Under the pieces are notes generated by a model, which ran no database searches, had not been told where the DNA came from, and saw only the letters and a list, made by a program, of their open reading frames with translations. 31,393 bases of DNA from Planctomycetota bacterium. Lineage in GTDB: Bacteria > Planctomycetota > Brocadiia > JAADGH01. Location: assembly GCA_013152475.1 (NCBI GenBank), contig JAADGH010000027.1, positions 608 through 32,000 on the forward strand, given 5' to 3'. This document shows, in pieces, positions 7,841 through 30,823 of this stretch; the first letter of the stretch is position 1, and each line of letters opens with the position of its first letter. The position numbers and the translations under genes were made by a program.

Positions 7841-7909
7841 GAGATCTTCCGCACCGACGTCAGAAGCGGCACGATACTCTGGGGCTGCCGACCGAGGAAA
7901 CACAAGGAC

Positions 7910-8128: not shown

Positions 8129-8167
8129 CTTTGTGACCGAGTACTTGAGAGAAAGACGGAGAACCTG

Positions 8168-11349: not shown

Positions 11350-11796
11350 ATGTCGGCAAAACCATTCGGACTGGCCATGAAGGCGTTCATCTACGATGAG
11401 GAAGGACGCTGTCTTCTTATCAGACGATCCATGAACTCAAAATTCTTCGCCGGCCAGTGGGATTTGCCGGGAGGCAAGGTGGATTCCGGCGAAGAATTCG
11501 ACGATGCCATGGCTCGGGAGGTGGCCGAAGAGACGGGCTTGACCATTACACTGGAAGGGGTTGCCGGAGCGAGTGAGCACGAACTGCCGCACATTCGTGT
11601 CGCGATCCTGTTCATGGAAGCGCGTGTTGCGTCGGGAGATGTCCAGTTGAGCAGTGAGCACGACGAATTCAGATGGGTATCACGGAAGGAACTCGGCAAC
11701 ATGGACATCTCCGATCAATTGAGTCCCTTTGTTTTGAGCTATCTTGAATCGAGCAATAAGTCGCAGATCATCTCGGACGAAAGGGGCCATGGATAA
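11350..11796 (+). CDS. NUDIX hydrolase
   Basis: Complete Nudix box GKVDSGEEFDDAMAREVAEETGL (GX5EX7REUXEEXGU). AAGGAGGA lies about 5 nt before the ATG at 11350. The track ORF from 11254 is an upstream extension. Confidence 0.9.
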   Translation: MSAKPFGLAMKAFIYDEEGRCLLIRRSMNSKFFAGQWDLPGGKVDSGEEFDDAMAREVAEETGLTITLEGVAGASEHELPHIRVAILFMEARVASGDVQLSSEHDEFRWVSRKELGNMDISDQLSPFVLSYLESSNKSQIISDERGHG

Positions 11797-11840
11797 TAGC
11801 TCTGAACAATAATTTGCCGGTTTTACAAAGGAGACATCCG

Positions 11841-14537
11841 ATGTCTAAGAAAGGCAAAGCGACTGAGACGAAGCACGAACGCGAACAGATCGTGAAGTAT
11901 GGAAGACTGTATCCTCGGTATAAGAAGTTCGCAGAGGTCCTCCGCCATATTCTCGAGAAAGCCGCGAAGACGCGAGCCCCCCTTGCCATCGTTCAGACAC
12001 GCCCGAAAAACATCGCAAGTTTTGCTGAGAAGATTCAGCGCAAAAAGGAAGAATACAAAGACCCGGTCAATGAGTTTACCGATCTCTGCGGAGGTCGTGT
12101 AATCGTGCACTTCCGGCGGGAAATTGATGCGATATGTGACTTCATCAAAAACCACTTCAAGGTCGATTGGGACAACAGCGTGGATGTTGTCGAACGACTC
12201 AACCCCACGGAGTTCGGCTATCGATCCGTCCACTATATCGTGTCGTTCCGGAAAGGTGTTTTTCCGACGGAAGAGATCCATGTCAAGATACCGGAAACAG
12301 TGCTGGGTCTGAAGTGCGAAATCCAGGTCAGGACCATCCTCGAACACGCGTGGGCCGACATCTCTCACGATCTGAGCTACAAGAGCGCTTTTCCCGTTCC
12401 CGAGAGGTGGATACGGGATATTGCACGTCTGGCCGCCATGCTCGAAGAAATTGACAGCGACTTCGAACGGGTTCAAGAGAGACTTCACAGTTACGCGGCC
12501 AGTTACGGCGAATACATGATGCCGGAGAAAGTCCAGGACGAAATCGACAAGCTTCGGATTGTGCTGAAGTATGACAGGAACAACGCAGAACTGGCGGACC
12601 GTATCGGCAAACTTGCCATCACGATCGGCGAATGGGATATTGCGATTCAAGTCCTTTCTCCGTATGCCGACTCCGGTCACCCGGCGGTGCTGAGGGATCT
12701 GGGGGTCGCGCTGTGCAAAAAGTATGACGGAAACAGGAAGAACGCCAAATATCGGCAAGGTCAATGCTACTTGGAGTTGGCTGCCGAACCTGAGCATCAG
12801 GATGCCGATGCGATGGCTTCCCTTGCTGGAACGTGGAAGGAAACTGATGAGGAAAAGGCACGGGAACTCTATCGGCGGGCCTACGAGGTCGATCCATCGG
12901 ATGCCTATCCCTTGGGCAACTATCTGGACCTGGAAATCATTCGCCAGAAAAACACATCCATTGTCTCGTTGATGAATCCGATGATTGAGGTGGCGGTTCA
13001 GAGATGCAGAGACCAAGCTAATGTGGGTATGAATCTGCCCTGGGTGTTCTATAGCATCGGCAAGTTCCGCCTCCTTCAGGGGAAGCCATACGAAAGCCTG
13101 GCTGCTTATGCCAAGGCAATCGACGTCAGCAGTGCGACGTTCATGATCGAATCCTCGTTGGAATCCCAGGATCGGCTTGCTGTGGTTGAGGAGCATCTAA
13201 CAGGCCTCCAGTGGGTGAGGATGTTGCTCCGCGTGGGATTGGCTGCCCACCTGATAAAGCGCCAACGAGAGGCCTTGGAGCAACGTCGTGCGGCGCGCGA
13301 GGACCTGAAGGAAAGCAAAGCAAAGCTTCGAGAGTTGGAGAAAGGGAGAAGGAAGTCACGCAAGGAGATCGCCGAACAGAAACAAGAGGTCAAGGATGCG
13401 GAGACCGGTGTCAAAGAGGCGCAGCGAGCGGTGACCCAAGCGAGGAAGGAACTTAGGGCGGCGAGATCGAAGTACATTCTGAAGAGCCAGCTCGCGTTCC
13501 GGAAAACACAACCCATCAACCAGCCTATAGTGATCGTGGTTGGCGGATGCGATCCTCAACTTAAGAAAGAAATGGCAGGATACAGATATCTCCTACTGGA
13601 GGCATTCAGGGACTTTGAGGGTACGGTCATATCCGGGGGCACAACGGCTGGAATCTCGGGCATCGTCGGCGAGATCGGCAAGAGATATCGGGGCCGCATC
13701 CACACGATAGGCTATCTTCCTCAGGCTCCGCTACCTGCCGATGCTAAGCTGGACAAGCGCTACGGTGAGGTCCGTCGGACGAAAGGCGAGGGGTTCACCC
13801 CCCTGGAACCCCTCCAGAACTGGATGGACATACTCGCCTCGGACATCGATCCGGTTGAGGTCCGCGTTCTCGGCGTCAATGGCGGCAAAATTGCGGCCGC
13901 GGAGTATCGCATCGCCCTGGCACTGGGCGCCCAGGTGGCCGTGGTGGAGGAGAGTGGCCGCGAGGCCGCCCGGTTGGCTCCCGACGAGGACTGGAGCGAC
14001 CTGCCGAACCTGATCCATCTTCCTGCCGACCCGATGACCATTCGTGCGTTCATTGGGTCGGGAAGCGGCAAACTGCCGGAGAAGATTCGGGATACCGTCG
14101 CCAAGGGCGTTCATGAGGAATACCGCCGCAATCAGGAAAAGGAGCTGCACAGCGGGAAGCCTTCGATGGCAGAATGGGCCAGCCTGAAGGAAAATCTCAA
14201 GGAGTCCAATCGCCAGCAGGCCGACGACATCTCAGCAAAGCTTCGCCGGATCGGCTGCACGGTAGAGCGCGTGAAGAATCGCGAGATTGTGCTCATGACG
14301 TTCACGAAGGCTGAAGTGGAAGCGATGGCGGTTATGGAGCACGCCCGATGGAATGTAGAGCGCCTCCTCGACGGCTGGACGTGGGGGCCGCAAAAGGACG
14401 TCGACCAGAAGATCAGCCCCTATCTGGTGAGCTGGGAAAAACTTCCCGAAAACGTCAGAGAATGGGACCGCCAGGCCGTTCGCGCCATCCCCAAACTCCT
14501 CGCCGAAGTAGGGCTGGAGGTGCGGCGGAACAGATAG
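11841..14537 (+). CDS. multidomain RelA/SpoT-type nucleotide pyrophosphokinase - TPR - coiled coil - SLOG (LOG/TRPM-N-like) - RyR-type domain protein
   Basis: - Synthetase motifs: TRPKNIASFAEKIQRKK, DLCGGRVIV, GYRSVHYIV, CEIQVRTILEHAWADISHDLSYK.
- TPR-like helices at about aa 250-400.
- Charged coiled coil: KRQREALEQRRAAREDLKESKAKLRELEKGRRKSRKEIAEQKQEVKDAE.
- SLOG-like: IVIVVGGCD...VISGGTTAGISGIVGE...GVNGGKIAAAEYRIALALGAQVAVVEESGR.
- RyR-like: MEHARWNVERLLDGWTWGPQKDVDQKISPYLVSWEKLPENVREWDRQAVRAIP.
- AAAGGAGA lies 6-7 nt before the ATG at 11841. Confidence 0.85.
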   Translation: MSKKGKATETKHEREQIVKYGRLYPRYKKFAEVLRHILEKAAKTRAPLAIVQTRPKNIASFAEKIQRKKEEYKDPVNEFTDLCGGRVIVHFRREIDAICDFIKNHFKVDWDNSVDVVERLNPTEFGYRSVHYIVSFRKGVFPTEEIHVKIPETVLGLKCEIQVRTILEHAWADISHDLSYKSAFPVPERWIRDIARLAAMLEEIDSDFERVQERLHSYAASYGEYMMPEKVQDEIDKLRIVLKYDRNNAELADRIGKLAITIGEWDIAIQVLSPYADSGHPAVLRDLGVALCKKYDGNRKNAKYRQGQCYLELAAEPEHQDADAMASLAGTWKETDEEKARELYRRAYEVDPSDAYPLGNYLDLEIIRQKNTSIVSLMNPMIEVAVQRCRDQANVGMNLPWVFYSIGKFRLLQGKPYESLAAYAKAIDVSSATFMIESSLESQDRLAVVEEHLTGLQWVRMLLRVGLAAHLIKRQREALEQRRAAREDLKESKAKLRELEKGRRKSRKEIAEQKQEVKDAETGVKEAQRAVTQARKELRAARSKYILKSQLAFRKTQPINQPIVIVVGGCDPQLKKEMAGYRYLLLEAFRDFEGTVISGGTTAGISGIVGEIGKRYRGRIHTIGYLPQAPLPADAKLDKRYGEVRRTKGEGFTPLEPLQNWMDILASDIDPVEVRVLGVNGGKIAAAEYRIALALGAQVAVVEESGREAARLAPDEDWSDLPNLIHLPADPMTIRAFIGSGSGKLPEKIRDTVAKGVHEEYRRNQEKELHSGKPSMAEWASLKENLKESNRQQADDISAKLRRIGCTVERVKNREIVLMTFTKAEVEAMAVMEHARWNVERLLDGWTWGPQKDVDQKISPYLVSWEKLPENVREWDRQAVRAIPKLLAEVGLEVRRNR

Positions 14538-17657: not shown

Positions 17658-18815
17658 ATGATTACACAGGAACGCTATTCGAGATTGAAAGCAATCTGGG
17701 GTGCACCCAATCTGTCTTGCCTCCGATCCAAGACCGTTATGGTCATCGGTTGTGGAAATCTCGGCGGGCAGATCATTCCGCACCTTGCGATGCTTGGCGT
17801 CGGTATGGTGCTTGTGGACCACGACCGGGTGAAAGCGCCGAACCTCGGGAATCAGGCGTTTGATGTGGCGCACATGGAAAAATCGAAGGTTTCCGGCCGT
17901 GAAGAGCAAGTGAAGAGGATCAACCCGGAGTGCAGAATCGAGACACTGGATGCGCGAGTTGAAGCCCTCGGTATGGGGGTGTTCCGAGATGTCGATATGG
18001 TGTTCTGCTGTTTGGACAATCTGGCCTCCCGTCTCTGGGTGAACGAGGCATGCCTTCGGTTGTCCGTGCCTTGGGTGGATGCCGCTCTGGATGGATCCGG
18101 CAAGACTACATATGCCAAGGTCGCCTGTTTTCCGAATACGGACGGGTCGGCCTGTTACCTCTGCTCGTGGGATGCGGACGCTCTGCAGGGGACTCTTCGC
18201 ACAGAAAATGGCGGATGCAAGTCCTGGTGGGACATCGGCAATGAAGATGCCCCTCCAACGCTGAGTTCATCGTGTCAAGCTGCAGTGGCGGCCGGCATTC
18301 AATGCGTTGCGGGACTTCGGATGCTGCTGGGCGATGGGGAAGCCGACTCCTCCCACGAGATCATCGTCAATCCAGAGGCAGGCTTCATGCGACGGGTGTG
18401 TCTGAAGGCGAATGTGGAGTCATGCATCGCGCCCCACGAGCCGTTCATGGATGTGGCAAGAGCGGGTGCTGGCCGCGCGTTGTCGGTCAACGACCTGTTC
18501 AGTCTGGCGGAGCGAAAGCTCGGCCCGGGTGTGGAGCTGGTCTTGCATGGGAGGGATTTGCTGACGACAGTCGATTGTGCAGCGTGCCAGAAAGGGAACG
18601 GTATCTGGCGGATGACCAATAACAGTGCGAAGAGCAAGATGACATGCCTGTGCGGAGCGCCGCTTACGCCGACTCCGCTGAGCGTGCTCAGGCAGATGGA
18701 CCGAGGCGCCGTGACGCCGATCCTGACACACACATGGGCGGAACTTGGATTGCCGCGGAAGGACATAGTCACCGCGAAGAAGAACGGTGCGAGTGTTCAC
18801 TTCCTCATCGAATAG
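17658..18815 (+). CDS. ThiF/MoeB-family E1-like adenylyltransferase
   Basis: RYSRL at the N-terminus. Rossmann VMVIGCGNLGGQIIPHLAMLGVGMVLVDHDRV. CCLDNLASRLWVNEAC (DN..R motif). Two CxxC pairs (CYLC, CAAC) as in the ThiF/MoeB zinc site. Only 6 nt after the previous gene. Confidence 0.85.
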   Translation: MITQERYSRLKAIWGAPNLSCLRSKTVMVIGCGNLGGQIIPHLAMLGVGMVLVDHDRVKAPNLGNQAFDVAHMEKSKVSGREEQVKRINPECRIETLDARVEALGMGVFRDVDMVFCCLDNLASRLWVNEACLRLSVPWVDAALDGSGKTTYAKVACFPNTDGSACYLCSWDADALQGTLRTENGGCKSWWDIGNEDAPPTLSSSCQAAVAAGIQCVAGLRMLLGDGEADSSHEIIVNPEAGFMRRVCLKANVESCIAPHEPFMDVARAGAGRALSVNDLFSLAERKLGPGVELVLHGRDLLTTVDCAACQKGNGIWRMTNNSAKSKMTCLCGAPLTPTPLSVLRQMDRGAVTPILTHTWAELGLPRKDIVTAKKNGASVHFLIE

Positions 18816-18828: not shown

Positions 18829-19374
18829 ATGAAAGGCGAAGACAGCGTATTCAGGAAGTTCCTCGATAACAGCTACGACCGAGGACGCGAACTGGAACGG
18901 GAAAGTGATATCCTGCGAATCGAGGCGCGACGCGGGGAACCGCCGACGGGTTTTCTGTGCAGCTTTGTTGGTGTCGAACACTTGGTTCGAGATCCGGACG
19001 GCACGGTAGAGAAGTGCACAGACCCTATCCTGATCGAGGTGCAGTTCCCCCCGGACTACCTGAAGTCGTGCGATCCTCATCTGGGGCTGCGGGTTGTGGG
19101 GATGTTGAACCGGAACATCTTTCACCCCAACATCCGTCCCCCGGCAGTCTGTCTCGGGAATGCGCTCCGGCCCGGGACAACGCTCGACGAGATACTGAGG
19201 TACGTCTACGAGATTATCAGCTATCAGAACGTCACGCCGAACGAATCGGATGCATTCTCGGCAGAGGCGTGCCGTTACGTGAGAGAGCACCCGGGGGTGC
19301 TGAGCGGATTGCGCATTCCGCCTCTACGCAGGAGAAAGTTGAGGAACGTGACCACTACGGTGAGGTCGCTCTGA
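18829..19374 (+). CDS. E2-like ubiquitin-conjugating (UBC-fold) protein
   Basis: VQFPPDYL...NRNIFHPNIRPPAVCLG carries the HPN motif followed by Cys at the canonical E2 spacing. The track ORF from 18787 would overlap the E1 end. The ATG at 18829 is used here. Confidence 0.8.
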   Translation: MKGEDSVFRKFLDNSYDRGRELERESDILRIEARRGEPPTGFLCSFVGVEHLVRDPDGTVEKCTDPILIEVQFPPDYLKSCDPHLGLRVVGMLNRNIFHPNIRPPAVCLGNALRPGTTLDEILRYVYEIISYQNVTPNESDAFSAEACRYVREHPGVLSGLRIPPLRRRKLRNVTTTVRSL

Positions 19375-19391: not shown

Positions 19392-20291
19392 ATGAACGAT
19401 GGAATTCACACACGTCTCTGGGGCCCAGGTACAGGAAGCCGCCCCCAGTCGCCTCTGGACAGGTTGGAGAAAGAGGTGAACGGATTTGTGAGGACACCGG
19501 ACGGTGCGGGCAGATTCGCCGTCGGAACCGCAGAGGTTGATGTGCGCCAGGACACGGAGCAGTGCCTGGTGCTCTCGGCCCCGCTCAGGAACGGATACGT
19601 CACGAAGATGGAGTTGTTGCGCCGTCAGCATTTCATCCAAGGTCCGTGCAAGTTCGCCGGCAATGGGCGGGGCAAGGTCCTGATCGCCGAGGCATTTCTG
19701 CGGCGTTCCAAAGAGCGGCTGATGGAGGCGTTCGAGGCGGCAACGGAGGGAATCGAGGCGGCAACACGCCTCGTTTCATGCAGCAACGCGAATTCCCAGG
19801 CGGCCCCCGGCTTCTTCCTGCGGGCAATCGACACGAAACAGAAAGACTTGGTGGAACGCTCGCTGGATGATCTCGGGGTGTCTGCGGCGCTTCGTGAAGA
19901 CGGCGTCTGGGCATGGTCTGTCGATACGAGCCGTCTACTGCATAGGATCCGGGTGAGGATTTCCGAAGGAAAGGAGAACTACTATGTTCATGTGGAAATC
20001 ACTGGCGACCCTTTGGGGACGCTTCTATCGACCGAGAGCCAAGAGGCCGTGGCCCGATTTGTTCTCGAAGCGAATCACAGCCTCCGTTTCGCTCGTTGCT
20101 CTGTGGCCGATGTTGAGAACGATTCCGGCCCCATGTTTCTTGCGGAGGCGGTCGTGCCGATAACCTTGTTCGACCATGAGCTGGCCAAGGCCATGATCGA
20201 CAGCGTTGTAGTGGCAGGGGAACAGGTTCGCGATGAAATCAACGCACTATGTCAGCCTGATGTCGCCCGCGCCTACCTCGGGATGCGGTGA
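19392..20291 (+). CDS. hypothetical protein (299 aa) embedded between E2 and Ubl genes
   Basis: Uninterrupted frame starting MNDGIHTRLW at the ATG at 19392, 17 nt after the E2 stop. The 444-aa track ORF from 18957 is an upstream extension through the E2 gene. No catalytic motif recognised. Confidence 0.65.
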   Translation: MNDGIHTRLWGPGTGSRPQSPLDRLEKEVNGFVRTPDGAGRFAVGTAEVDVRQDTEQCLVLSAPLRNGYVTKMELLRRQHFIQGPCKFAGNGRGKVLIAEAFLRRSKERLMEAFEAATEGIEAATRLVSCSNANSQAAPGFFLRAIDTKQKDLVERSLDDLGVSAALREDGVWAWSVDTSRLLHRIRVRISEGKENYYVHVEITGDPLGTLLSTESQEAVARFVLEANHSLRFARCSVADVENDSGPMFLAEAVVPITLFDHELAKAMIDSVVVAGEQVRDEINALCQPDVARAYLGMR

Positions 20292-20744: not shown

Positions 20745-21842
20745 ATGGAAAGGAAAGCTACGGTGAGTATTCCGGCAGCAGCGACCTCTCAGAACAAGTA
20801 CACGTTCACGCTTGAGTTGGCCGATCTGGAGCTGACCAAGATTTTGCACCGGGAGCCGCTCCAGGCCGTCTCCAGACTTGTCGAGCACTTCATTTTCGAG
20901 GTGCGATGCCGCGGACTCATTGATGACGGTGCGGAGGATCCCCCGTCCGAGGTGATCCCGGTCTGGTCGGGCGGTTCCGAAGGCCCGTTCGTCAATGGCA
21001 TCCGTGTGCGTCTCGACTTCAACGGAGACAAGGATGCTGTGGTGAAGGACTTCGGCATCACACACTTTGCCAGCCAAGCCCGTACCGTTGCGTCCAACCT
21101 GATTGTGCGCGGTGTGCTCAAGCAGGACGAGCGATTCCACTATCTGATCAGCGCGTTGCGCAGTGATGTGCAGACCGAAACGAGCGGCCAAGAGCCAAAA
21201 CGAGGATTCCACACCTCCGTTCGGACGCCGAGAATCGCGTTTCTCCCAACGCCTCTCGCCTCTCTGTCGTCCACTCTCGCCACAGATGAGGCGCAGGAGA
21301 AATTCTTGGATGTCTTGATTCCCAGGGTGGTCGCCGACGAGATCCTTGGGCGTGTCGAGCAGTCCAATGAAGACGAATTGGGCGGATTCCTGATAGGCAA
21401 CCTTTGTCGCGATCCATCGTCCGGTCGGGCATTTGTGCTGGTGAACGCGCAGGTTGAGGCCCGCGAAGGGACCGAAGCGACGTGCACGAGCTTCAAGTTC
21501 ACCGACCGAACATTCCTGGCGGCATCTCACTGTCTCCAATCGCGACGGCGAAAGGGCGAGCGCATCGTGGGCTGGTACCATAGCCATGTGTTCTGCAGGA
21601 AGTGCGAGAAGCGGAACACATGTGACGTCGGCACCGTGTTCTGGTCGCAGAGCGACCAGACGGTACACGAGTCGGCATTCCCACACCCCTACCAGTTCGG
21701 TTTGGTGGTGGGCTACGGTGGCGGCGCCAAGAACACCGGAAACGGCCCATACGCATTTAAGTTGTACGGTTGGCGGGACTGCATGATTACCGAACGACCG
21801 GTCACCATAGTGAATGGAGTGGATGATGGTGAAGCAGAATAA
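20745..21842 (+). CDS. JAB/MPN (JAMM) metallopeptidase with ~190-aa N-terminal extension
   Basis: JAMM elements are present: EDELGGFLIG (Glu), GWYHSH (HxH), WSQSD (SxxD). A Cys-rich insert FCRKCEKRNTCD lies between HxH and SxxD. Confidence 0.8.
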   Translation: MERKATVSIPAAATSQNKYTFTLELADLELTKILHREPLQAVSRLVEHFIFEVRCRGLIDDGAEDPPSEVIPVWSGGSEGPFVNGIRVRLDFNGDKDAVVKDFGITHFASQARTVASNLIVRGVLKQDERFHYLISALRSDVQTETSGQEPKRGFHTSVRTPRIAFLPTPLASLSSTLATDEAQEKFLDVLIPRVVADEILGRVEQSNEDELGGFLIGNLCRDPSSGRAFVLVNAQVEAREGTEATCTSFKFTDRTFLAASHCLQSRRRKGERIVGWYHSHVFCRKCEKRNTCDVGTVFWSQSDQTVHESAFPHPYQFGLVVGYGGGAKNTGNGPYAFKLYGWRDCMITERPVTIVNGVDDGEAE

Positions 21843-23520
21843 AGACGAAGACATCCTGAAGGTGCTGCTGGGTGAGGAGCTTCCGGCAGCGGAAGAAGAC
21901 AGCCGGCTGGAGAGGCTCCTCAGCGGTGATCCGCCGAAGGGCGTTCTGGTGGAGATGTTGCTGCGCGCCACCAACCAGAAGCGCAAGCTCGAGTTGGGCC
22001 TCCAGGAGGCAAAGAAGCTGGATCAAAAGAAGAGCAAGTTGATCCAGGAGTTGACGGCTCTTCCGTGGTATCCGGCGAAGTTTGTCAGGCGATGCGACAA
22101 CATGCCCGGGAAGGTCTATGTTTCTGTGGGTCACAGCGAGATGCTCGTCGGCTGCGCCAACGGGATTCGCCCGGATGAGCTGCGTCACAGCCAAACGGTT
22201 CTCCTGTCGCACGAGAGGAACTGTATCGTCGGCGTCGATGACTGCCCTTCGCGCTTTGGCGATATCGGCACGGTGGATCGTGTGCTGGGGGAACAGGCCA
22301 TTCTGAAAATCAATGAAGCCGAGGAGATTCGCGTGGGTCTCTCCGATGAACTGCGGGCGGACCCACCGAAGACGGGAGACCGGGTGATATACGACCGAGG
22401 CCTGCTTCTCGCTTTGGAGATTCTTCCCAAGCAAGAGGAGGAGAGCTCTATTCTGGAGGACGTTGACAGCTCGATCAGCTTCGACATGATTGGCGGACTG
22501 GATGACGTAATCGATCAGATCCTCGAAGACGTGGCCCTCCATCTGTTCCACCGTGACCTGGTGCGGGAGCATCGGCTCCGCCCTTCAAAAGGCATTATCC
22601 TGGCGGGACCGCCTGGGGTAGGGAAGACGATGATTGGGAAAGCGCTTGGCACGTTTCTGAAGTCACAGGCGGTCACATCCGGGGAAGTGAAGTTCTGCGC
22701 CCTCCCCCCGGGATCGTTCCGGTCACACTATTATGGGATGACGGAGCAGCGAATCCGGCAGGTTTTTCGGGTCTGCAGGGATTTCTCGAAACGCAAAGAC
22801 GGCAACCGATGCATTCTCTTCTGTGACGAACTCGATACATGGGGGCGTCGCTCCGCAGACGTCACGAACAGCGTGGATTCGAGGGTGCTGACGTGCTTCC
22901 TGAGCGAAGTGGATGGGCTTGATGAGACCGGAAACATCTTTCTCATTGGGGCGACAAACCGGGCGGACGATCTTGTGGATTCCGCCCTTATGCGGCCCGG
23001 GCGCTTTGGCGACAATATCCTTCGCATCCCCCGTCCCGGACGCGAAGCAATCCGCGACATCTTCGGGAAGTATCTCACCCCCGACCTGCCCTTCAGGCGC
23101 AACGGACACCGGGCGTCGCAGGCGGAAGCCGCCGAGATTGCGGCCGAAATCATCGATGCCGCAACATCGAGAATCTTCCGCGCCAATGATGACGCGAGGA
23201 TTGCCACGTTGATCATGCGTGATGGGTCGCGGCGCGACGTTCATGCCCGGGAGATCATATCGGGGGCCATGTGTGAGAATATCGTCCGCCGCGCGAAGGT
23301 GAGATCGTGTGTGCGTGGACTTGCGGAAGAAACGGGCATCACGCCGGCCGACGTGATCGAGGCAGTGGACGACGAAGTGACCTCGGCGGCACGCTCTCTC
23401 CGATCTCCGAGCAATGCCAGGGCGGTGCTCGGCTTGAGTAGTGACAACGATATTGTGCGCGTGGAGTTTCCTTCGGATGGCGCCGAGCACATTCGCCCTC
23501 ATCGTTATGTTCGAGCGTGA
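21814..23520 (+). CDS. Mpa/ARC/PAN-like AAA+ unfoldase (coiled coil - OB-like - classical AAA)
   Basis: Coiled coil NQKRKLELGLQEAKKLDQKKSKLIQEL, then a beta-rich segment. Walker A ILAGPPGVGKT, pore loop HYYG, Walker B ILFCDELD, sensor LIGATNR, RPGRFG box. Overlaps the JAB stop by 29 nt, with alternative ATGs at 21823 and 21826. Confidence 0.85.
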   Translation: MEWMMVKQNKDEDILKVLLGEELPAAEEDSRLERLLSGDPPKGVLVEMLLRATNQKRKLELGLQEAKKLDQKKSKLIQELTALPWYPAKFVRRCDNMPGKVYVSVGHSEMLVGCANGIRPDELRHSQTVLLSHERNCIVGVDDCPSRFGDIGTVDRVLGEQAILKINEAEEIRVGLSDELRADPPKTGDRVIYDRGLLLALEILPKQEEESSILEDVDSSISFDMIGGLDDVIDQILEDVALHLFHRDLVREHRLRPSKGIILAGPPGVGKTMIGKALGTFLKSQAVTSGEVKFCALPPGSFRSHYYGMTEQRIRQVFRVCRDFSKRKDGNRCILFCDELDTWGRRSADVTNSVDSRVLTCFLSEVDGLDETGNIFLIGATNRADDLVDSALMRPGRFGDNILRIPRPGREAIRDIFGKYLTPDLPFRRNGHRASQAEAAEIAAEIIDAATSRIFRANDDARIATLIMRDGSRRDVHAREIISGAMCENIVRRAKVRSCVRGLAEETGITPADVIEAVDDEVTSAARSLRSPSNARAVLGLSSDNDIVRVEFPSDGAEHIRPHRYVRA

Positions 23521-23547: not shown

Positions 23548-25254
23548 ATGGCAGTCAAGAAGATCACCGGCGCCGACATCGAGTTTGGCAACAGCATCGT
23601 GGGCCGAAAGTCAGGTTCCCAAAGCACGTCATATGAAGCGTGTCAATATCTCTTGAATGAGGTGGATGGGATCGCACCGCTTTCGGGATGGCGCAATAAT
23701 GTGGGATTCTACCAGACGCATTACGCCACATGCGGGACGGAATTGCCCAATAGCGGGGTATGGGGGAATGCCACCAATGCCCACACACAAGGCAGCGCCT
23801 ACAACTATCGCGACTACGGGCGAAAGTGGCGCAACTACTGCATCTATGGTGACTTGGGCCATTGTGAAGGCTGCCTACCAGAGACCACATCGGCCTTCGA
23901 CCACGTTGCCGCCCTCCACGGCCTCTACAATCTGGTCGAGAATCTCATGAGGCAGGCCAACGAGAAACTCCCCGACGGACAAGAGTTGTTTGTAACGGCG
24001 AATAACTCGGATGGGTCCAGGGTGTCGAGTTGGGGGGCACATTTCAATGTGCTGATCACGCGCAACTTGCGGAGACAGATTTTCACGCGAAAACCTCACA
24101 AGCTTGGAATGCTTGCGTCATTCTTCGCTTCCTCGGCGCCGCTCTTCGGCCAGGGCCATGTATTGAGGCGGAGGGACGGCAAGTCGAAGTTCGTTCTGTC
24201 CTCCCGGGCCCATCAGACCGGCGTTCTGGTCGATCCCTCTACGACCGTCCCGTTTCGCCGTCCGATTGTGAACTCCCGGGACGAACGGCACGCCTCAGAA
24301 GACCTGGCGCGCCTGCACATCATCTGCTACGACGCCAATCTGCAGCAGATAGGAACGCTGCTGAGGGTGTGGCTTACCCAAGCTTTCCTCGCCGCCATGG
24401 AGGAGGGATTCTTCGACTCGAAACTGCTGCTGGATGATCCTGTGGCGGCCTTCCGCTGCTGGTCAGGAGGGTTCTCGGTCACTACGGGCAGAATCGAGAG
24501 GAAATGCCGTTTGGCCTTTGGGGGGAAGATATCGCCCGTTGAGTGGTTCATGGCCCTGACGGAGGCACTGGTGAACATGCACGACGCCGGTCTGCTTCCG
24601 GAGGAGATCGTTCCGGACACAGATCGGATACTGCCAATCTGGATTGACTCGCTCCGGAAATTCGCGGAAGGCAACGTGACCGCCCTTGCGAAGCGCTTCG
24701 ATTGGGCTCTGAAGCTGACGATCCTGGACCGTCAAATGTCGGAGCATGGCTTCGACCTGCAGTCGCCGGAAGCCGCGCTCCTGAACCAGATGTACGCTCA
24801 TATAGACAAGGAACGAGGTCTGTACTTCGCCCTGGAGAAGGCCGGTTTTCTGGAGACCGCCGTACGCCCCCAGAGAATCGCGTTCATGCAGGCAAACGGC
24901 CCTATGGATACGAGGGCCTTCGCCAGGAAGTCAATCATTGAGAAGTTCTCGGATAACATTCGGCGAATCGACTGGGGGAAAATCACGTTGGAGATTCCCA
25001 GCAACAACGGCTGGGGGAGTCGGAAGACAATACTCCTCGACCATCCCGGTCACTACACTCAAGCGGAGGTCGGACAACTGATTGAGGAGTGCCGCACAGT
25101 AGAGGACCTCTGCAGAGCCATGGAAACGCATGATCCGAACACTGTGCGGTCGTCGTCCCTTGTGGTGCGGGACTGCGGCAGCGTAGAACCCGGATGTTGC
25201 GGCACTGAAACGCAGTGGCCTAACAGGGGAGAACAGGAGACCCAGAGGAAATGA
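23548..25254 (+). CDS. Pup-ligase/Dop family (PafA-like) protein 1
   Basis: Three segments match my recollection of M. tuberculosis PafA:
- KKITGADIEFG (cf. PafA RIMGIETEFG).
- ANNSDGSRVSSWGAHFNVL (cf. KNNTDSAGNSYGCHENYL).
- RPIVNSRDERHA..LARLHIICYDANLQQIGTLL (cf. RPIINTRDEPHA..RRLHVIVGDSNMSETTTML). Confidence 0.8.
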   Translation: MAVKKITGADIEFGNSIVGRKSGSQSTSYEACQYLLNEVDGIAPLSGWRNNVGFYQTHYATCGTELPNSGVWGNATNAHTQGSAYNYRDYGRKWRNYCIYGDLGHCEGCLPETTSAFDHVAALHGLYNLVENLMRQANEKLPDGQELFVTANNSDGSRVSSWGAHFNVLITRNLRRQIFTRKPHKLGMLASFFASSAPLFGQGHVLRRRDGKSKFVLSSRAHQTGVLVDPSTTVPFRRPIVNSRDERHASEDLARLHIICYDANLQQIGTLLRVWLTQAFLAAMEEGFFDSKLLLDDPVAAFRCWSGGFSVTTGRIERKCRLAFGGKISPVEWFMALTEALVNMHDAGLLPEEIVPDTDRILPIWIDSLRKFAEGNVTALAKRFDWALKLTILDRQMSEHGFDLQSPEAALLNQMYAHIDKERGLYFALEKAGFLETAVRPQRIAFMQANGPMDTRAFARKSIIEKFSDNIRRIDWGKITLEIPSNNGWGSRKTILLDHPGHYTQAEVGQLIEECRTVEDLCRAMETHDPNTVRSSSLVVRDCGSVEPGCCGTETQWPNRGEQETQRK

Positions 25255-25300
25255 GCAGTGACCTGACGCGGAAGATGGACCCGATTGACGAAAGGAGCAC

Positions 25301-25516
25301 ATGATGAGTGGCGAAAGAGAAATATTCCGTCGTCGTCCAGGAAGCAACGATCCAAACGATGAATTGAATGGCCCAGATGCCGAGCGACTTCAGAATGCAA
25401 GGAACCAAGCTGGGGATTTTGACTCGGTTATCGGGCGGGCCCTTGCGTCTTTGCGAAACCAGAAGAACTCGGCAGAGAACATCCTGAAGTCCATAAGAAA
25501 CCCGGGCGGAGAATAA
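25301..25516 (+). CDS. Pup-like small protein modifier ending in GGE
   Basis: 71 aa, with AAAGGAG 3-6 nt before ATGATG. Polar and low-complexity N-half. The C-terminus NSAENILKSIRNPGGE-stop resembles M. tuberculosis Pup ENAEDFVRAYVQKGGQ, with the AE at the same distance from the end. The stop lies 1 nt before the next start. Confidence 0.7.
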   Translation: MMSGEREIFRRRPGSNDPNDELNGPDAERLQNARNQAGDFDSVIGRALASLRNQKNSAENILKSIRNPGGE

Positions 25517-25517
25517 G

Positions 25518-27098
25518 ATGGAAGAAGAAGTATTCATCCTGGGTTCGGAGCATGAACTGGCGGCGGCGATGTTTCCACCTCACGGCGGGCTGGGGCACAT
25601 CAGCAACGATATTGCTCACGAAGTGATCCAGCGGGAACTAAAGAGCTCCGGCGTTCCGTATCTGTTCGATACCTCTCGATCGGGCTTGTTCCTCTACCTC
25701 GGTCGGATCTACATGGACCCGACGGGACACCACGTGGAATTTGCCGTCTGTCCGGCAGGGTCGCCGCACGAAGTCGTTCAAACCGAGGCGAAGATGATCC
25801 GTCTGTTGCGCGACGCTATACGGTGGGTGCAAGTGCACTTGTCCGGCTTTGCGCTTGTTCACAACAACTACGATTACATTACGCACTCTACGTGGGGCCA
25901 GCACTGCAACTATGCCATCCAGGTGCCGCTTGATGCCCTCGAACGGGCGCTCGTCCCTTTCCTTGTTACCCGCCAGGTCTTCGCCGGGCCCGGTTCGGTT
26001 GGATGCAACGACCACGGGATGGACCTGAATCCAAGGACGCACTTCATATCGCGCACAACCGGGGGCGAGACGACGAGCAGTCGGAGCATCTATTCCACCG
26101 CACGGAATGAGCCCTTGATGGTGTCCTCCCGCTTCCATCACCGGCTCCACCTCATTTCCGGATGCTCGCTTATGAGCCAATTCGGACAATGGCTGAAGCT
26201 GGGCACTACCGCTTTGGTGATCCGGGCGGCGGAAAAGGATCCGACCATCGGCGATGCGGTTGCCTTTGCAGATCCCGTCCGTGCGATAAAGACGCTGAGC
26301 GTCTTAACTCCGGACCGGAAACATCTCTTCGATCCGCACTTGCTGAAGGTGCAGAAACACTATGTTCGAGTTGTAGCGGACATGCTCCAGGAAGGTGATT
26401 TTCCGAAGTGGTGCTTCGATATCTGGAGAGCGTGGCACGATACCCTCAAAAGACTCGAAAGCGATCCGATGGCACTGGATCGTCGGCTGGACCCATACAT
26501 CAAACTCAGACTATTCGGCCGCTTCCTGCAGGAACGAGGAAAACGGTGGCACCACGTGAGCGAAGACGAAAGCCTCTACTACGATCTCGCGTTGCTGGAT
26601 GTCCGATACCACGCCCTCTCTGGCGGTTTGTTCGAGATGCTGGATGCAGAAGGCGTGCTCGAACACAAGCTTGTGTCGGATAGGGAAGCAACGCCCGGCA
26701 GCGAGGATGATCCATATGTGCTCACCGGCCTGCCAAGGGAATCCTTCAGGGGGCGAATGATCAAGAAGCTGAATGGGCGGTCGCAGTTCCGCTGCGATTG
26801 GCAGCATATCACTGACATGGAGCGGAGGCAATATCTGGAGATGCACGACCCTTTGGAAACGCCCCGGGGGCGATGGCAGCGGATGATGACGAGAGAACAA
26901 GATGCTTTTCGCATCTCTCTCGTTTCAGAAGGAGAGCTGCGTTCACCGTCTCGGCGAGCAGGCCCCCCGCCATCGGGCCGGACACCTCGTGATAGTCTTC
27001 CCCGAGTCATTAGAGAGCTGCTGGAGGCACGCGAACACGAACTCGATGAGGTGCGACTGAGGGCGCGTCAACAGGCGCGAGAACGCCCCGGGCAGTAG
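25518..27098 (+). CDS. Pup-ligase/Dop family (PafA/Dop-like) protein 2
   Basis: FILGSEHEL, RIYMDPTGHHVEFA (cf. RLYLDVGSHPEYA), STWGQHCNYA, LVPFLVTRQVFAGPG (cf. LLPFLVTRQLICGAG), HRLHLISGCSLMSQFGQWLKLGTTALVIRAAE (cf. [31 protein letters not shown]). Confidence 0.8.
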   Translation: MEEEVFILGSEHELAAAMFPPHGGLGHISNDIAHEVIQRELKSSGVPYLFDTSRSGLFLYLGRIYMDPTGHHVEFAVCPAGSPHEVVQTEAKMIRLLRDAIRWVQVHLSGFALVHNNYDYITHSTWGQHCNYAIQVPLDALERALVPFLVTRQVFAGPGSVGCNDHGMDLNPRTHFISRTTGGETTSSRSIYSTARNEPLMVSSRFHHRLHLISGCSLMSQFGQWLKLGTTALVIRAAEKDPTIGDAVAFADPVRAIKTLSVLTPDRKHLFDPHLLKVQKHYVRVVADMLQEGDFPKWCFDIWRAWHDTLKRLESDPMALDRRLDPYIKLRLFGRFLQERGKRWHHVSEDESLYYDLALLDVRYHALSGGLFEMLDAEGVLEHKLVSDREATPGSEDDPYVLTGLPRESFRGRMIKKLNGRSQFRCDWQHITDMERRQYLEMHDPLETPRGRWQRMMTREQDAFRISLVSEGELRSPSRRAGPPPSGRTPRDSLPRVIRELLEAREHELDEVRLRARQQARERPGQ

Positions 27099-27151: not shown

Positions 27152-28303
27152 ATGGATCTCGACGATGTTCTCATGAGGGAACTGAAGGGACAAGGGGTGA
27201 AGCTCGACGCCCGCGATCGAGACACCCTCATCCTCTACGGTGTCCCCGTGAGCGCACAATACAGCAAGTCCCATGTCAACCTGCTCGTCAAACGGTCACG
27301 AGAAAAGCTGTTTTTCTGTTTTGCCGATCAGGATTTGGCGTATCAGGGGCAAGATCCGGCTATATGTCGCTTGTTCGGCGGTGAAGGGGTCAAGCGCGAA
27401 GGCTGGCGATGTCTCTTTGCAGACCATTCAGATCGTACGTTCCAGGGGGCGGTTGAGCGTGCGTTGTCCATCCTGGGGTTTTTGGCAGAGCCACGTCTTC
27501 CTCCTCCCAACGTACATGCACAAGGCGGCTGCCAACTGCTGAACGCCTTCGCCAGGGACCTTTCCGGAGAAATCCGGGAAGGCATGGCGGAGCCGACAGT
27601 CGGTCGAGAGAAAACGGTCGCGGAGGTTACCATGTGCCTGCGGCGCATGGGAGGGGCCAAACTCGTGATCGTTGCCGGCCCGCCGGGCGTCGGCAAGACG
27701 AACCTATGCAGCGCAGTCGCGGCTCGACTTGCGGAATGTTGCCCGACCCTTGCCATGTGGTCGGTGGATCTCGGCCTCCTCTTCGCCGGGACACTCTTCG
27801 ACGCGGAACGGGAGGGCCTATTGATGAATCTCCTGAGTGAGACGATCGAGAACAACGGAACCGGCCTCGTTCTTGCGATGGAACATCTGGAACTGACGCT
27901 TCGTTCCCCATGTGGTCCGGATATTCTGACCCACGCGTTGAACTCCAACGCAAGGATCGTCGGGGTCACAACGGCCGAGCACCTGCGTCATATCCCCCCT
28001 GCGTTGGCCAGGCGCGCGCACGTGATCGAGCTTGCCGGTCTGTCACCGACCCAGACGCTCGGAGTGCTGAGAGCCCATGCGGAAAGGTTGGCAAAGCATC
28101 ATGGGGTGCAGATTCCTGACGCGTGCCTGCCTGCATGCGTCAAAGCGGTCCAAGAGCTGCCAGGCAACCTGCCGGCCAAGGCCTTGCTCATACTGGACAC
28201 GGCAGCCGCCAACGTGGCGCTGTCGAGTGCCGGAGTGGTTAGCGTGGACGACATCTACTTCGCCGCAAGGCTCTGCGAGAAGAGCGCGGAACGCCTTCCC
28301 TGA
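27152..28303 (+). CDS. ClpA/ClpB D1-like single AAA+ module with unknown (possibly E2/UEV-like) N-terminal domain
   Basis: GREKTVAEVTMCLRR...LVIVAGPPGVGKTNL (Walker A). VDLGLLFAGTLFDAEREGLLMNLLSE (cf. Clp LDxxxLxAGxxxRGEFEERL). RIVGVTTAEHLRHI..PALARRAHVIEL (cf. IGATTxxEYR...ALxRRFQxV). HHGVQIPDACL...LPAKALLILDTAAA (cf. LPDKAIDLLDEA). The Walker B position reads LVLAMEHL. Confidence 0.7.
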   Translation: MDLDDVLMRELKGQGVKLDARDRDTLILYGVPVSAQYSKSHVNLLVKRSREKLFFCFADQDLAYQGQDPAICRLFGGEGVKREGWRCLFADHSDRTFQGAVERALSILGFLAEPRLPPPNVHAQGGCQLLNAFARDLSGEIREGMAEPTVGREKTVAEVTMCLRRMGGAKLVIVAGPPGVGKTNLCSAVAARLAECCPTLAMWSVDLGLLFAGTLFDAEREGLLMNLLSETIENNGTGLVLAMEHLELTLRSPCGPDILTHALNSNARIVGVTTAEHLRHIPPALARRAHVIELAGLSPTQTLGVLRAHAERLAKHHGVQIPDACLPACVKAVQELPGNLPAKALLILDTAAANVALSSAGVVSVDDIYFAARLCEKSAERLP

Positions 28304-28440: not shown

Positions 28441-29286
28441 GTGAAGCAGGGGGCACGAAGAAGAACCGGCGGCCGGCAACAGGTCTTCATCAGCTACCGG
28501 CGCGAGGGCGGCGCTGAGTTAGCCCGCTTGGTGCGAAATAGCTTGGTGCAGCGAGGCTATCGAGTGTTCATGGATGTGGAAGACCTGCGCACCGGTCCCT
28601 TCAATAAGGCCCTTGCGGAGTGCATCAGGTTTTGTACGGACGTGGTGATCATTCTGACTCCAGGCAGTCTTGATCGTTGCTTCAACCAAGGGGATTGGGT
28701 CAGACTCGAGATTGCCTATGCCCTCCAGCAGAAGAAGAACATCATTCCTGTGATGGCTCGGGGTTTCGAGTGGCCGCCGAAGCCGCTTCCGAAGGATATT
28801 GGCGGTCTGCCGCTCTTCAACGCCCTCACACCCGCCCACGAAATCTTTGACGCCAGTATGGACAAGCTTGCGTCCCTGCTCCATGCGCGCCCACGCAAGA
28901 TGGCCCCAAAGCTGCTTCTCTGTGGAGCTGCAATCGCTGCCGTGGTCGCGGTCACGCTTTTCATGGTTTTACCGTCATCTGACCGAGCGAAACAGAGCCC
29001 AGTTGAGCAGACACTCAAGGATAAGAAGCCTACGAAAGACAAAGAGGCGGGGACTCCGCGTGATGCGGCCAAGGACTTGGGCCGGAAACGCCAGCAACCA
29101 CCTCTACCTCCTCTGTCTCGAATGGGCGGTCGCGAAAGACCTTTCTGCGAAACCCTATCCGGAGAAGAAGCCCTTGTGGACGTTCCAGAAACGGTAGAAG
29201 GGGATAGCGTATGTGCCGCGTGGCGTATCCATTGCGGAGGTGAAACCAATCGGAGGGATGGACGTGTTGTTCTTCACGGCCGATGA
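28441..29286 (+). CDS. TIR-domain protein with one transmembrane helix
   Basis: QVFISYRREGGAELARLVRNSLVQRGYRVFMDVEDL...DVVIILTPGSL...WVRLEIAYAL...NIIPV is a TIR with the conserved Glu. TM helix LLLCGAAIAAVVAVTLFMVL. GTG start. The 3' end overlaps the next ORF. Confidence 0.8.
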   Translation: MKQGARRRTGGRQQVFISYRREGGAELARLVRNSLVQRGYRVFMDVEDLRTGPFNKALAECIRFCTDVVIILTPGSLDRCFNQGDWVRLEIAYALQQKKNIIPVMARGFEWPPKPLPKDIGGLPLFNALTPAHEIFDASMDKLASLLHARPRKMAPKLLLCGAAIAAVVAVTLFMVLPSSDRAKQSPVEQTLKDKKPTKDKEAGTPRDAAKDLGRKRQQPPLPPLSRMGGRERPFCETLSGEEALVDVPETVEGDSVCAAWRIHCGGETNRRDGRVVLHGR

Positions 29287-29788
29287 ACACTATGGGCACG
29301 CCCACATCATCCACCTCTGCGGGCGGCCTTTTCGGACGGTGGAGGAAATGGACGAGGAGCTGATACGGCGCCACAATGCCGTCGTGAAGGACAGCGACCT
29401 CGTCGTCCATGTGGGGGACTTCACCCTCAAGAACAAGAGCCGGGCCAAATCGTACATCTCCCGCCTCAAGGGGGAACACGTCTTTCTCCGTGGAAGCCAC
29501 GACAGATGGCTGAAGGAGGCGCATGAGATTTGGGAAAAGGAGATCGCGGGAGAATACGTCGTCGTTTGCCACTACGCCATGAGAGTATGGCCGAGATCGC
29601 ACTACAACAGCTGGCAGCTCTACGGCCATTCCCACGGCAGACTCGATCCCATCGGCAAGCAGTGGGACATCGGTGTGGACAACAACGACTATTATCCCGT
29701 ATCCTTTGAGCGGATAAAAGATATCATGGCGGAGCGGCCGGACAATCCCAATCTGATCAAGGGCGGCAAACCGCGGACCCGCCGTTGA
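29213..29788 (+). CDS. calcineurin-like metallophosphoesterase
   Basis: FFTADEHYGH (motif I), VVHVGDF (GD), FLRGSHD (GNHD-like), LYGHSHG (GHxH). The start is ambiguous: GTG 29213, GTG 29240 or ATG 29258. Confidence 0.75.
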   Translation: MPRGVSIAEVKPIGGMDVLFFTADEHYGHAHIIHLCGRPFRTVEEMDEELIRRHNAVVKDSDLVVHVGDFTLKNKSRAKSYISRLKGEHVFLRGSHDRWLKEAHEIWEKEIAGEYVVVCHYAMRVWPRSHYNSWQLYGHSHGRLDPIGKQWDIGVDNNDYYPVSFERIKDIMAERPDNPNLIKGGKPRTRR

Positions 29789-29794
29789 AAGGGC

Positions 29795-30823
29795 ATGTCC
29801 TGGCGTCCGCCCGGGAGGGAAAAGGAAATCTTGAATCCACCGCAGCAAGACGCCGTTCATCCTCCCTTTGAGGCGTATTCGGGAGACGAGCCATATCTCT
29901 TTGTGAGCTATGCCCACAAGGATGCGGCGGCGGTCTACCCGGAATTGAAATGGATGCATGGGCACGGCTACCGCGTCTGGTACGACGAAGGCATTGATCC
30001 TGGGAATGAATGGCCGGAAGAGATTGCCAAAGCGCTCCACGGCTGTTCGATGTTCCTCGTCTTCATCTCCCCGCGTGCCGTCGTATCCAAGAACGTCCGC
30101 AATGAAATCAACTACGCCATCAACCACGACAAGCCCTTCCTGGCTGTGTATCTTGAAGAGACCGAACTGCCCCGGGGCCTGGAGCTCCGTATGGGTGACA
30201 TTCAGGCCATCGTGAAGTACCGTATGCCGGAAGACCGATACCATCGGCAACTACAGAGATCGCTTCCGCACGACCTGGGCGGTGGTATTCCAGAGGGTGG
30301 GGCGGTCGAGTCGCAGCCAGAGCCAGCCGCCGAAGTTGCCGCGGACACGGGCAGTCCGAAACCGTCGATCAATAGGGAAACACGCATACGACGAGAGATC
30401 TGGAAGTTCATGCTTTTTGCCCTCAGCTACGGTGTGGGGATCGCGGCGATTCAGTGCTTGGGGGTCCTTGCGAAATTCGATGGCGTTCTGTATGGGGTGG
30501 ACATTTCGGCGAAGGCGCGGTTCACGTTCAGCCTCGATGGCATACTCGCTATTGTGGTCCTGTCCGTCCTGCCCGGTGTGTGGTTTCTTCTGTGGGAGAA
30601 CAACGAGAAGGGGATTGCGTCCTCCATCGTATGCCTGCTTGCCTATTACGGATTCGCAGCGCTCCACTGGAAGTACGTCGGCCGCATGCTTCCACTGGTT
30701 GCGCCGGGCATTGCGGTCTGCGTTGCTGTATTCTGTGCTCTGGGAAATCAACTGGCGTACTGGCGCACCTGGCATTCGCCCCGGGACCCGGATGCGAAGG
30801 ACCCGTTGAAGCCGCCGTGCTAA
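29795..30823 (+). CDS. TIR-domain protein with four C-terminal transmembrane segments
   Basis: PYLFVSYAHKDAAAVYPELKWMHGHGYRVWYDEGIDPGNEW...MFLVFISPRAVVSKNVRNEINYAI...KPFLAVYL is a TIR. Hydrophobic segments: FMLFALSYGVGIAAIQCLGVL, ILAIVVLSVLPGVWFLLW, IASSIVCLLAYYGFAAL, LPLVAPGIAVCVAVFCAL. Confidence 0.8.
   Translation: MSWRPPGREKEILNPPQQDAVHPPFEAYSGDEPYLFVSYAHKDAAAVYPELKWMHGHGYRVWYDEGIDPGNEWPEEIAKALHGCSMFLVFISPRAVVSKNVRNEINYAINHDKPFLAVYLEETELPRGLELRMGDIQAIVKYRMPEDRYHRQLQRSLPHDLGGGIPEGGAVESQPEPAAEVAADTGSPKPSINRETRIRREIWKFMLFALSYGVGIAAIQCLGVLAKFDGVLYGVDISAKARFTFSLDGILAIVVLSVLPGVWFLLWENNEKGIASSIVCLLAYYGFAALHWKYVGRMLPLVAPGIAVCVAVFCALGNQLAYWRTWHSPRDPDAKDPLKPPC

Follow-up and report, generated by a model that had tools for sequence, protein, structure and literature searches.

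A putative Pup-like modifier gene in a conserved operon that also encodes ubiquitin-like conjugation genes in a Planctomycetota bacterium

Gene Content of the Locus

The stretch of DNA analysed here, called the window below, comprises 31,393 nucleotides (nt) of contig JAADGH010000027.1 from a Planctomycetota bacterium. An open reading frame (ORF) on its + strand, at positions 25301–25516, ended in ...SIRNPGGE followed by a TAA stop codon, and was flanked by two genes of the Pup_ligase family (PF03136), designated Lig1 and Lig2. The small protein is likely a conjugated tag of the Pup type. Its gene belongs to a Pup-like module, the distal half of an operon that is conserved and whose other half encodes an E1, an E2, a candidate ubiquitin-like protein (Ubl) and a JAB protease. 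The eleven genes of this operon and the signals around the small gene are the following, related loci being designated by numbers such as L085:

17007..17651, + strand: first gene of the operon, 214 amino acids (aa), no known domain; no Pfam or PADLOC match, homologues in place at most loci
17658..18815, + strand: E1-like adenylating enzyme of the ThiF family (PF00899 at 1.7e-33; PADLOC E1-E2 models at about 1e-15)
18829..19374, + strand: eukaryote-like E2 of the UBC fold, with HPN motif and catalytic Cys (profile A9 against PDB, best E 6.6e-4)
19392..20291, + strand: protein of about 300 aa, weakly YbjN-like (PF10722 at 5.7e-4, sub-cut-off), placed alike in L085, L087 and L089
20331..20597, + strand: candidate Ubl, 88 aa, ending PEVTAG (weak PF18037 match below the Pfam cut-off)
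20745..21842, + strand: JAB/MPN metalloprotease (PF01398, PF14464), with a 29-nt overlap with the AAA gene
21814..23520, + strand: Mpa/ARC-like AAA+ ATPase with an OB domain, 568 aa (TIGR03689 at 2.5e-84, PF16450, PF00004)
23548..25254, + strand: Lig1, Dop-like member of the Pup-ligase/deamidase family, 568 aa (PF03136 at 1.2e-64; NCBIfam Dop 188 versus PafA 156 bits)
25292..25297, + strand: Shine-Dalgarno sequence AAGGAG of the small gene, read from the sequence, 6 nt 5' of the ATG at 25304
25304..25516, + strand: small gene, putative Pup-like modifier (70 aa, NPGGE end), supported by conservation, purifying selection and a transitive profile link
25505..25513, + strand: Gly-Gly-Glu codons GGC GGA GAA, including a GGAG, read from the sequence; the G-[E/Q] end is kept in relatives
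25518..27098, + strand: Lig2, second enzyme of the Pup-ligase family, PafA-like architecture, 526 aa (PF03136 at 1.4e-54; PafA 140 versus Dop 137 bits)
27152..28303, + strand: single-module ClpA/B/V-like AAA+ protein, last gene of the operon (AAA_lid_9, TIGR03345/03346 D1-region matches)

Relatives of the locus came from two scans: one of metagenome contigs, for which Lig1 homologues were aligned (80 loci), and one of genome contigs with a narrower alignment (seven loci). When the window proteins were searched by tblastn, the order was X (about 214 aa) – E1 (ThiF) – E2 – protein of about 300 aa – Ubl – JAB – Mpa-like AAA – Lig1 – tag – Lig2 – Clp-like AAA. Upstream of Lig1, 34 loci extended for 6.8 kb or more, and 32 of these had the E2, JAB and AAA genes; the Clp-like AAA gene followed Lig2 or the tag gene in many loci. 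Gene calls and Pfam tags gave the same order in L085, L087, L089, L090 and L098. It was also the order of L099, broken there by a gene for an IS110-family transposase, and the contigs of L086 and L088 began too near Lig1 to cover the upstream half of the operon.

A first-pass annotation of the window, made from the sequence alone, covered only four of these genes, the AAA gene being the first and the second ligase-family gene the last. It described them as an AAA – ligase – pup-like – ligase series without prcBA, and this description held: the AAA was Mpa-like, both neighbours of the small ORF were Pup_ligase (PF03136) members, and no proteasome domain was present among the scanned window ORFs or the Pfam-annotated neighbours of L085–L090, L098 and L099, the parts of these genomes that the search covered. 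The gene spacing left no room between the tag gene and Lig2.

The Small Gene Is Genuine and Coupled to Lig2

Between the AAGGAG sequence and the two candidate ATGs there are 3 nt (25301) and 6 nt (25304). A length of 70 aa is recorded for the database copy of the small protein (P0001) and for an orthologue (P0002). Because of this spacing and of this length, the start is probably the second ATG, at 25304. The ORF of the first-pass annotation was real, its length of 71 aa probably being one residue too long. The translational coupling to the ligase-family gene that had been claimed was also borne out. The stop codon (25514–25516) is separated by a single base from the ATG of Lig2 at 25518, and the GGAG inside the Gly-Gly-Glu codons, 6 nt 5' of that ATG, is likely its ribosome-binding site. 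The tag gene overlaps Lig2 by 1–4 nt in four close relatives, so that tight coupling of the two genes is a conserved feature.

The small ORF is a genuine gene conserved under purifying selection. A 70-aa orthologue with 61% identity occupied the same position, 3' of a Pup_ligase fragment, on four independent contigs. The differences between the window gene and this orthologue were distributed as 23/14/47 over codon positions 1/2/3, corresponding to a proportion of nonsynonymous differences (pN) of 0.275 and of synonymous differences (pS) of 0.815, the synonymous sites being saturated. When 1.84 billion representative proteins were searched exhaustively with HMMER, eight small proteins of 69–72 aa emerged as a window subfamily; all but one of them end in G-[E/Q]. 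The protein is strongly hydrophilic (grand average of hydropathy, GRAVY, −1.19) and 82% of its first 28 residues are disorder-promoting, a composition that fits the polar, disordered N-terminal half proposed for it.

A Large Family of Unannotated Small Proteins and Its Profile Link to Pup

In nearly all of the 80 metagenomic loci, an ORF of 62–80 aa was found directly 3' of the Lig1 homologue. The small ORF and its G-[E/Q] end were conserved in homologous loci; a lack of such conservation would have spoken against the reading of the first-pass annotation. These loci contained approximately 64 distinct tag sequences, with the consensus ...LLAAGDEAIxRALSGxSEAFLxAxRQQGG[E/Q], and the ends encountered among the relatives were GGE, GGQ, SGQ, SGE, PGQ and PGE. 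The tag gene was flanked by two PF03136 genes in the window, in L085–L089 and in most other loci. Proteins of 50–90 aa ending in G-[E/Q] are the criterion used for Pup by Iyer et al. (2008, PMC2588565); the window protein has 70 aa and ends in GGE. Ten family members looked up in public sources were all unnamed or recorded as "hypothetical protein".

Four profiles were compared: A3, the window subfamily (eight sequences); A4, the main family; A2, the combined profile of the window protein and its relatives; and A8, an alignment of 24 actinobacterial Pups. The alignment of A3 with A4 by hhalign gave a probability of 93.9% (E 1.6e-7) with the C-termini in register. That of A4 with A8 gave 89.4% (E 2e-6) with the last 24 residues in register. 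The combined profile aligned with actinobacterial Pup at 90.8%, and when A2 was searched against PDB (177,635 sequences) the six best matches were all Pup chains, with E-values of 0.0015–0.08 and aligned at the C-terminus. The residue-by-residue register with the C-terminus of Mycobacterium tuberculosis Pup, which the first-pass annotation had given, was the one recovered by hhalign. The M. tuberculosis Pup sequence used as a control matched PF05639 at 3e-22 and was valid for this reason. Among six relatives searched against the Pup models PF05639 and TIGR03687, the sole match was that of the L071 protein, sub-threshold (E 0.006 and 0.018).

The Two Flanking Enzymes

Lig1 is a Dop-like enzyme in fold, according to its predicted structure. 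In Lig1 and its six orthologues the Dop score exceeded the PafA score (7/7). An AlphaFold2 (AF2) model built from 20 homologues had a predicted local distance difference test score (pLDDT) of 85 and a predicted template modelling score (pTM) of 0.86, and its best structural match was Dop, with template modelling (TM) scores of 0.85–0.92 (E 1e-31; 0.92 with 7oyh_A) against 0.73–0.76 for PafA. Residues 47–87, a 40-residue insert, were disordered in the model and coincided with the Dop-loop position. A proline-containing loop corresponded to the alpha-loop, and the catalytic Asp (IYGD102) and the metal and ATP motifs were invariant.

Lig2 appears to be PafA-like by architecture, as inferred from its alignments. 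Its orthologues align with the PafA model from model residues 1–4 and possess no Dop-loop. The enzyme retains GxExE, the catalytic Asp, H129, R173, R189 and H211. An AF2 model from the single Lig2 sequence (pLDDT 38) was unusable as a structural basis. PADLOC contained no model for the ligases or the tag.

C-termini in E and in Q both occur within the tag family, as in true Pup, and therefore a deamidase activity is expected somewhere in the family, as in actinobacteria, where Gln-ending Pup is deamidated (Hecht et al. 2020, PMC7947786). As a side observation, Lig2 was directly 3' of the tag gene in 39 of 42 distinct Gln-ending cases and in 13 of 26 Glu-ending ones (loci L005–L099). Where no Lig2 was adjacent, the Clp-like AAA gene came next, and in several of these loci Lig2 was present elsewhere on the opposite strand. 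This pattern is probably clade-specific and was given no functional reading, because the loci without an adjacent Lig2 constitute one peat-metagenome clade.

The AAA+ ATPase, the JAB Protease and the Ubiquitin-Like Half

The best family match of the AAA protein was TIGR03689, the proteasome ATPase Mpa/ARC (2.5e-84, 284 bits), and its OB domain matched PF16450 at 6.5e-9. GQYL is the proteasome-docking motif of Mpa. It was not found at the C-terminus of the window AAA, which reads ...IRPHRYVRA (23494–23517); relatives carry PHRY[LR]xxAA instead, within a tail ...RKVxxPHRY[LR]xxAA shared by about 70 related loci. This conserved tail may be a docking site for some partner. In L098, the JAB and AAA proteins are encoded by a single ORF of 957 aa (6965–9838), with JAB at residues 55–332 and AAA at residues 461–940. 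By analogy, the overlap in the window and this fusion resemble the placement of Rpn11 on the ring of proteasomal ATPases (Rpt).

The E2 of the window had no Pfam match. Its profile A9 produced 117 matches in PDB at E ≤ 1, and among the 60 listed all were UBC-type E2 or E2-derived; the HPN motif and the Cys were invariant in orthologues. The orthologues of the candidate Ubl end in ...AG or in ...LQPNIDAG followed by 0–4 extra residues. The latter form, whose extra residues are variable and which resembles a ubiquitin precursor, is that of the main family (loci L008–L097). Such extensions imply precursor processing, presumably by the JAB peptidase. Roles as E3, adaptor or sensor are conceivable for the 214-aa product of the first gene and for the protein of about 300 aa.

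Proposed Function and Alternatives

We propose that the small protein is a conjugated tag of the Pup type and a highly divergent member of the Pup lineage, a reading we hold to be likely. It coincides with the core of the first-pass annotation, a Pup-type modifier with a ligation-ready C-terminal Glu, and is supported by synteny, by the neighbouring enzymes, by the conserved ends and by the transitive profile link. The existence and conservation of the gene, the family and fold assignments and the profile links are results; conjugation, the ligating enzyme, the reader of the tag and the biological role are inferred, the mechanism being modelled on the actinobacterial system. The tag would be small and largely unstructured, and the gamma-carboxylate of its C-terminal Glu70 would be joined to lysines in its target proteins. 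One of the two flanking carboxylate-amine ligases with a glutamine synthetase (GS) fold would phosphorylate the terminal Glu with ATP and form the isopeptide bond. Its PafA-like architecture and the absence of a Dop-loop make Lig2 the likelier ligase. The other enzyme would remove the tag, and in Gln-ending relatives would first deamidate the Gln to Glu; Lig1 is the likelier candidate because of its Dop-like fold and of the disordered insert at the Dop-loop position. The window protein ends in GGE, so no Dop-type deamidation would be needed before ligation, as had been pointed out from the sequence.

The upstream Mpa-like AAA+ unfoldase would be the likely reader of the tag. Because the operon has no 20S proteasome genes, the outcome would probably be unfolding, extraction or hand-over to another protease or factor, and not canonical Pup-proteasome degradation. 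Candidate partners for this step are the terminal Clp-like AAA and whatever binds the conserved AAA tail. The linkage to the E1, E2, Ubl and JAB genes, together with the fusion of JAB and AAA, points to one unfoldase on which the two tags meet, and the two tagging systems would then act on a common process around a shared AAA machine. On this basis the operon can tentatively be regarded as one two-tag machine, in which a beta-grasp Ubl (with eukaryote-like E1 and E2, and JAB for its removal) and the Pup-like tag (with the Dop/PafA-like enzymes) would both feed one proteasomal-type AAA+ unfoldase. Such a machine would stand, in Planctomycetota, Acidobacteriota and Hydrogenedentota, as a bacterial equivalent of 19S regulatory logic that works without a proteasome. 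We consider this extension possible but doubtful.

Several observations weigh against the assignment to the Pup lineage and against the roles given to the enzymes. The window protein had no match in Pfam or NCBIfam, including PF05639 and TIGR03687, even at E ≤ 10. BLASTP gave no alignment with M. tuberculosis Pup, direct comparison of A3 with A8 by hhalign gave only 0.3%, and no Pup was among the PDB matches of the A3 profile. When the main-family hidden Markov model (HMM) was run against the 588 ORFs of the window, the small ORF ranked first, with an E-value of only 0.09, a result that was not taken as proof by itself. Single exceptions to the conserved ends exist among the relatives (GAQ and GR), the latter being that of the one window-subfamily member without a G-[E/Q] end. 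The first-pass annotation had called the protein Pup/UBact-like; no direct match to a Pup or UBact profile was obtained, and the hhalign link to Pup passes through the main family. Homology between the window protein and Pup is thus transitive, depending on one profile-profile step and on synteny. Its credibility comes chiefly from the agreement in length, in terminal chemistry and in exact syntenic position.

With regard to the neighbouring proteins, all three scored below the equivalog cut-offs: the AAA with 284 bits for 505 (TIGR03689), Lig1 with 188 for 492 (Dop, TIGR03688) and Lig2 with 140 for 551 (PafA, TIGR03686). In sequence searches of PDB, both Lig1 and Lig2 scored nearer to Dop than to PafA. 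The alpha-loop residues, used after Hecht et al. (2020) as a guide to ligase and hydrolase roles, gave mixed signals and were not relied on. Window Lig2 has C216 where relatives have Glu or Asp ([QH]x4D motif), and Asn197 where most orthologues have Asp; these changes could alter or weaken its catalysis. The assignment of the ligase and depupylase roles to the two enzymes is uncertain. In summary of the profile tests, formal membership failed for PF05639, TIGR03687, NF033388 and the Dop and PafA equivalogs, and by analogy the protein most likely works like Pup.

The small protein might be a dedicated cross-talk factor, ligated only to a component of the Ubl system (Ubl, E2 or adaptor) or to the AAA machine, as an on/off switch. 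Such a role would agree with the near-constant association of the module with E1, E2 and JAB in the clade (32/34 loci), with the overlap of JAB and Mpa-like AAA in the window and their fusion in L098, and with the rarity and fast evolution of the window subfamily, as expected of a specific co-evolving partner. No sequence feature indicates a specific acceptor, however, and both chemistry and enzymes are as in general pupylation, in which PafA modifies hundreds of proteins according to the literature. We therefore regard a cross-talk factor as rather unlikely.

A non-covalent role, whether as an adaptor, as an inhibitor of both GS-fold enzymes, or in mimicking a substrate of the AAA unfoldase or regulating it, would require that the G-[E/Q] end serve for binding only. 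Conjugation is so far a prediction, window Lig2 is substituted at two positions conserved in its relatives (C216 and N197), and the locus has no proteasome that would give a tag a degradative purpose. But approximately 70 highly divergent sequences keep a Gly before a terminal Glu or Gln, the hallmark of an activated gamma-carboxylate (Iyer et al. 2008, PMC2588565), and the ATP/Mg and catalytic Asp motifs are kept in both enzymes, which makes a purely non-covalent role improbable.

Membership of the UBact family would account for a small protein outside Actinobacteria with a C-terminal Glu and adjoining Mpa/Dop/PafA homologues. UBact was reportedly found in Gram-negative phyla by Lehmann and colleagues in 2017. 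Neither the window protein nor six relatives matched NF033388, and hhalign of A3 or A4 gave less than 1% in a comparison with a UBact-like proxy sequence. The proxy itself matched NF033388 at 3.5e-22, and therefore the model was present in the searched library. UBact loci, moreover, are reported to carry proteasome genes, which were not found at the annotated loci described here. UBact identity was rejected on the NF033388 and hhalign results, and we judge it very improbable. Finally, many spurious overlapping ORFs exist in the window, including one of 105 aa on the opposite strand (25220–25537), but a chance ORF in a GC-rich intergenic region, to which we attach almost no probability, is already refuted by orthologues with third-position-biased divergence and constant length, ends and synteny across phyla.

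Relation to Known Systems

The Pup-type tag proposed here shares with the actinobacterial Pup-proteasome system (mpa-dop-pup-prcB-prcA...pafA) a polar, probably disordered tag of 60–70 aa with a GG[E/Q] end, E as well as Q termini, the order AAA – Dop-like – tag – PafA-like, GS-fold enzymes with catalytic motifs, and the alignment of the last 24 residues of the main family with Pup. It differs in that the window protein falls short of PF05639 and TIGR03687, the enzymes are below the equivalog cut-offs, the AAA has no GQYL tail, and prcA and prcB are absent from the window and the annotated related loci. In addition, the hosts are not actinobacteria and the module lies within an operon with E1, E2, Ubl, JAB and a Clp-like AAA.

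UBact systems (Nitrospirae, Verrucomicrobia and related phyla) resemble it by a small tag with C-terminal Glu beside Mpa/Dop/PafA homologues outside Actinobacteria. They differ by the lack of a sequence relationship detectable with NF033388 or hhalign, and by an operon which is another one, the window operon being without proteasome genes.

Pup homologues outside Actinobacteria are known, as the first-pass annotation noted. Sporadic Pup and PafA genes, including proteasome-less pairs in Rhodopirellula and Plesiocystis whose ligases have a four-transmembrane insertion and a membrane-protein partner, were reported by Iyer, Burroughs and Aravind (2008, PMC2588565), and single PafA/Dop-like paralogues in Planctomycetes by Hecht et al. 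(2020, PMC7947786). In view of these two works, a Pup-like gene beside Pup-ligase genes in a planctomycete is not new in kind. The Rhodopirellula and Plesiocystis pairs are similar to the present locus by their planctomycete or Gram-negative hosts, by Pup next to a PafA homologue and by the absence of linked proteasome genes. At the present locus, in contrast, no four-transmembrane insertion was visible in the alignments or in the Lig1 model (no dedicated transmembrane prediction was run), and two paralogues and an Mpa-like AAA are joined to a full Ubl conjugation system.

That system has the components of Bil, type II CBASS Cap2/Cap3 and Bub operons, namely an E1 of the ThiF type, a UBC-like E2 with HPN-Cys, a candidate Ubl with a Gly end that carries short extensions in relatives, and a JAB protein; unlike those operons, it is flanked mostly by housekeeping genes and not by defence islands. 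A text search of bacterial ubiquitination papers found no mention of Pup or PafA, a 2024 ubiquitin review naming Pup only in passing, and no paper joining Pup-ligase genes with E1/E2/JAB operons was found among openly searchable texts. Three features appear to be new within this literature, namely the large tag family that carries no annotation, the window subfamily with its strong divergence, and the conserved joining of pupylation-like and eukaryote-like Ubl modules in one operon. The small gene alone is moderately interesting, and the two-tag operon is the more surprising finding.

Pupylation and Ubl conjugation are treated as separate, convergent solutions to protein tagging, and pupylation is tied to the actinobacterial proteasome. 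At the loci described here, which come from at least three Gram-negative phyla, both systems share one conserved operon, arranged around a proteasomal-type AAA and lacking a proteasome. Should the small protein prove to be conjugated, Pup-type chemistry would reach a large, currently unannotated protein family, and these operons would offer a natural system for asking what a Pup tag does without the 20S particle. They would also provide a tractable bacterial model for the deubiquitinase-unfoldase partnership, with a bearing on the origin of the ubiquitin-proteasome system. A simple annotation rule would recover the missed small gene: an ORF of 60–80 aa with a G-[E/Q] end, directly 3' of a PF03136 gene.

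Hosts and Flanking Genes

The hosts of the operon were Planctomycetes (the metagenome-assembled genome, MAG, of the window, Tepidisphaeraceae and Isosphaeraceae), Acidobacteriaceae, Blastocatellia and Hydrogenedentota. The source label of the Lig1 homologue P0008 added a Nitrospiraceae MAG. A scan of viral contigs found no relatives. The flanks varied from locus to locus and consisted mostly of housekeeping genes. In the window, the following genes surround the operon:

8168-10243: TrkA_N and RyR protein
11254-11796: NUDIX protein
11814-14537: RelA_SpoT, TPR-S, SLOG and RyR protein, 907 aa
14931-16637, - strand: sigma-54-dependent transcriptional activator, divergent and upstream, some 370 bp away from the first gene of the operon
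28441-29286: TIR-domain protein, immediately 3' of the operon
29213-29788: metallophosphoesterase, between the two TIR genes
29795-30823: second TIR-domain protein, which also matched ThsB_TIR

The sigma-54-dependent activator could be a regulator of the operon. The region 8168–14537 upstream formed a signalling or conflict-type cluster, and a homologue of the RelA_SpoT and RyR protein was also present 3' of the operon in L086. The TIR and metallophosphoesterase genes (28441–30823) were not conserved beside the operon at other loci. The flanks of the window hint at a defence or signalling role, without consistent support. Three genes located further upstream were apparently unrelated to the operon:

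491-1183: DUF4417 protein
5776-6531: DUF4412 protein
6924-7427: dual-specificity phosphatase-like protein

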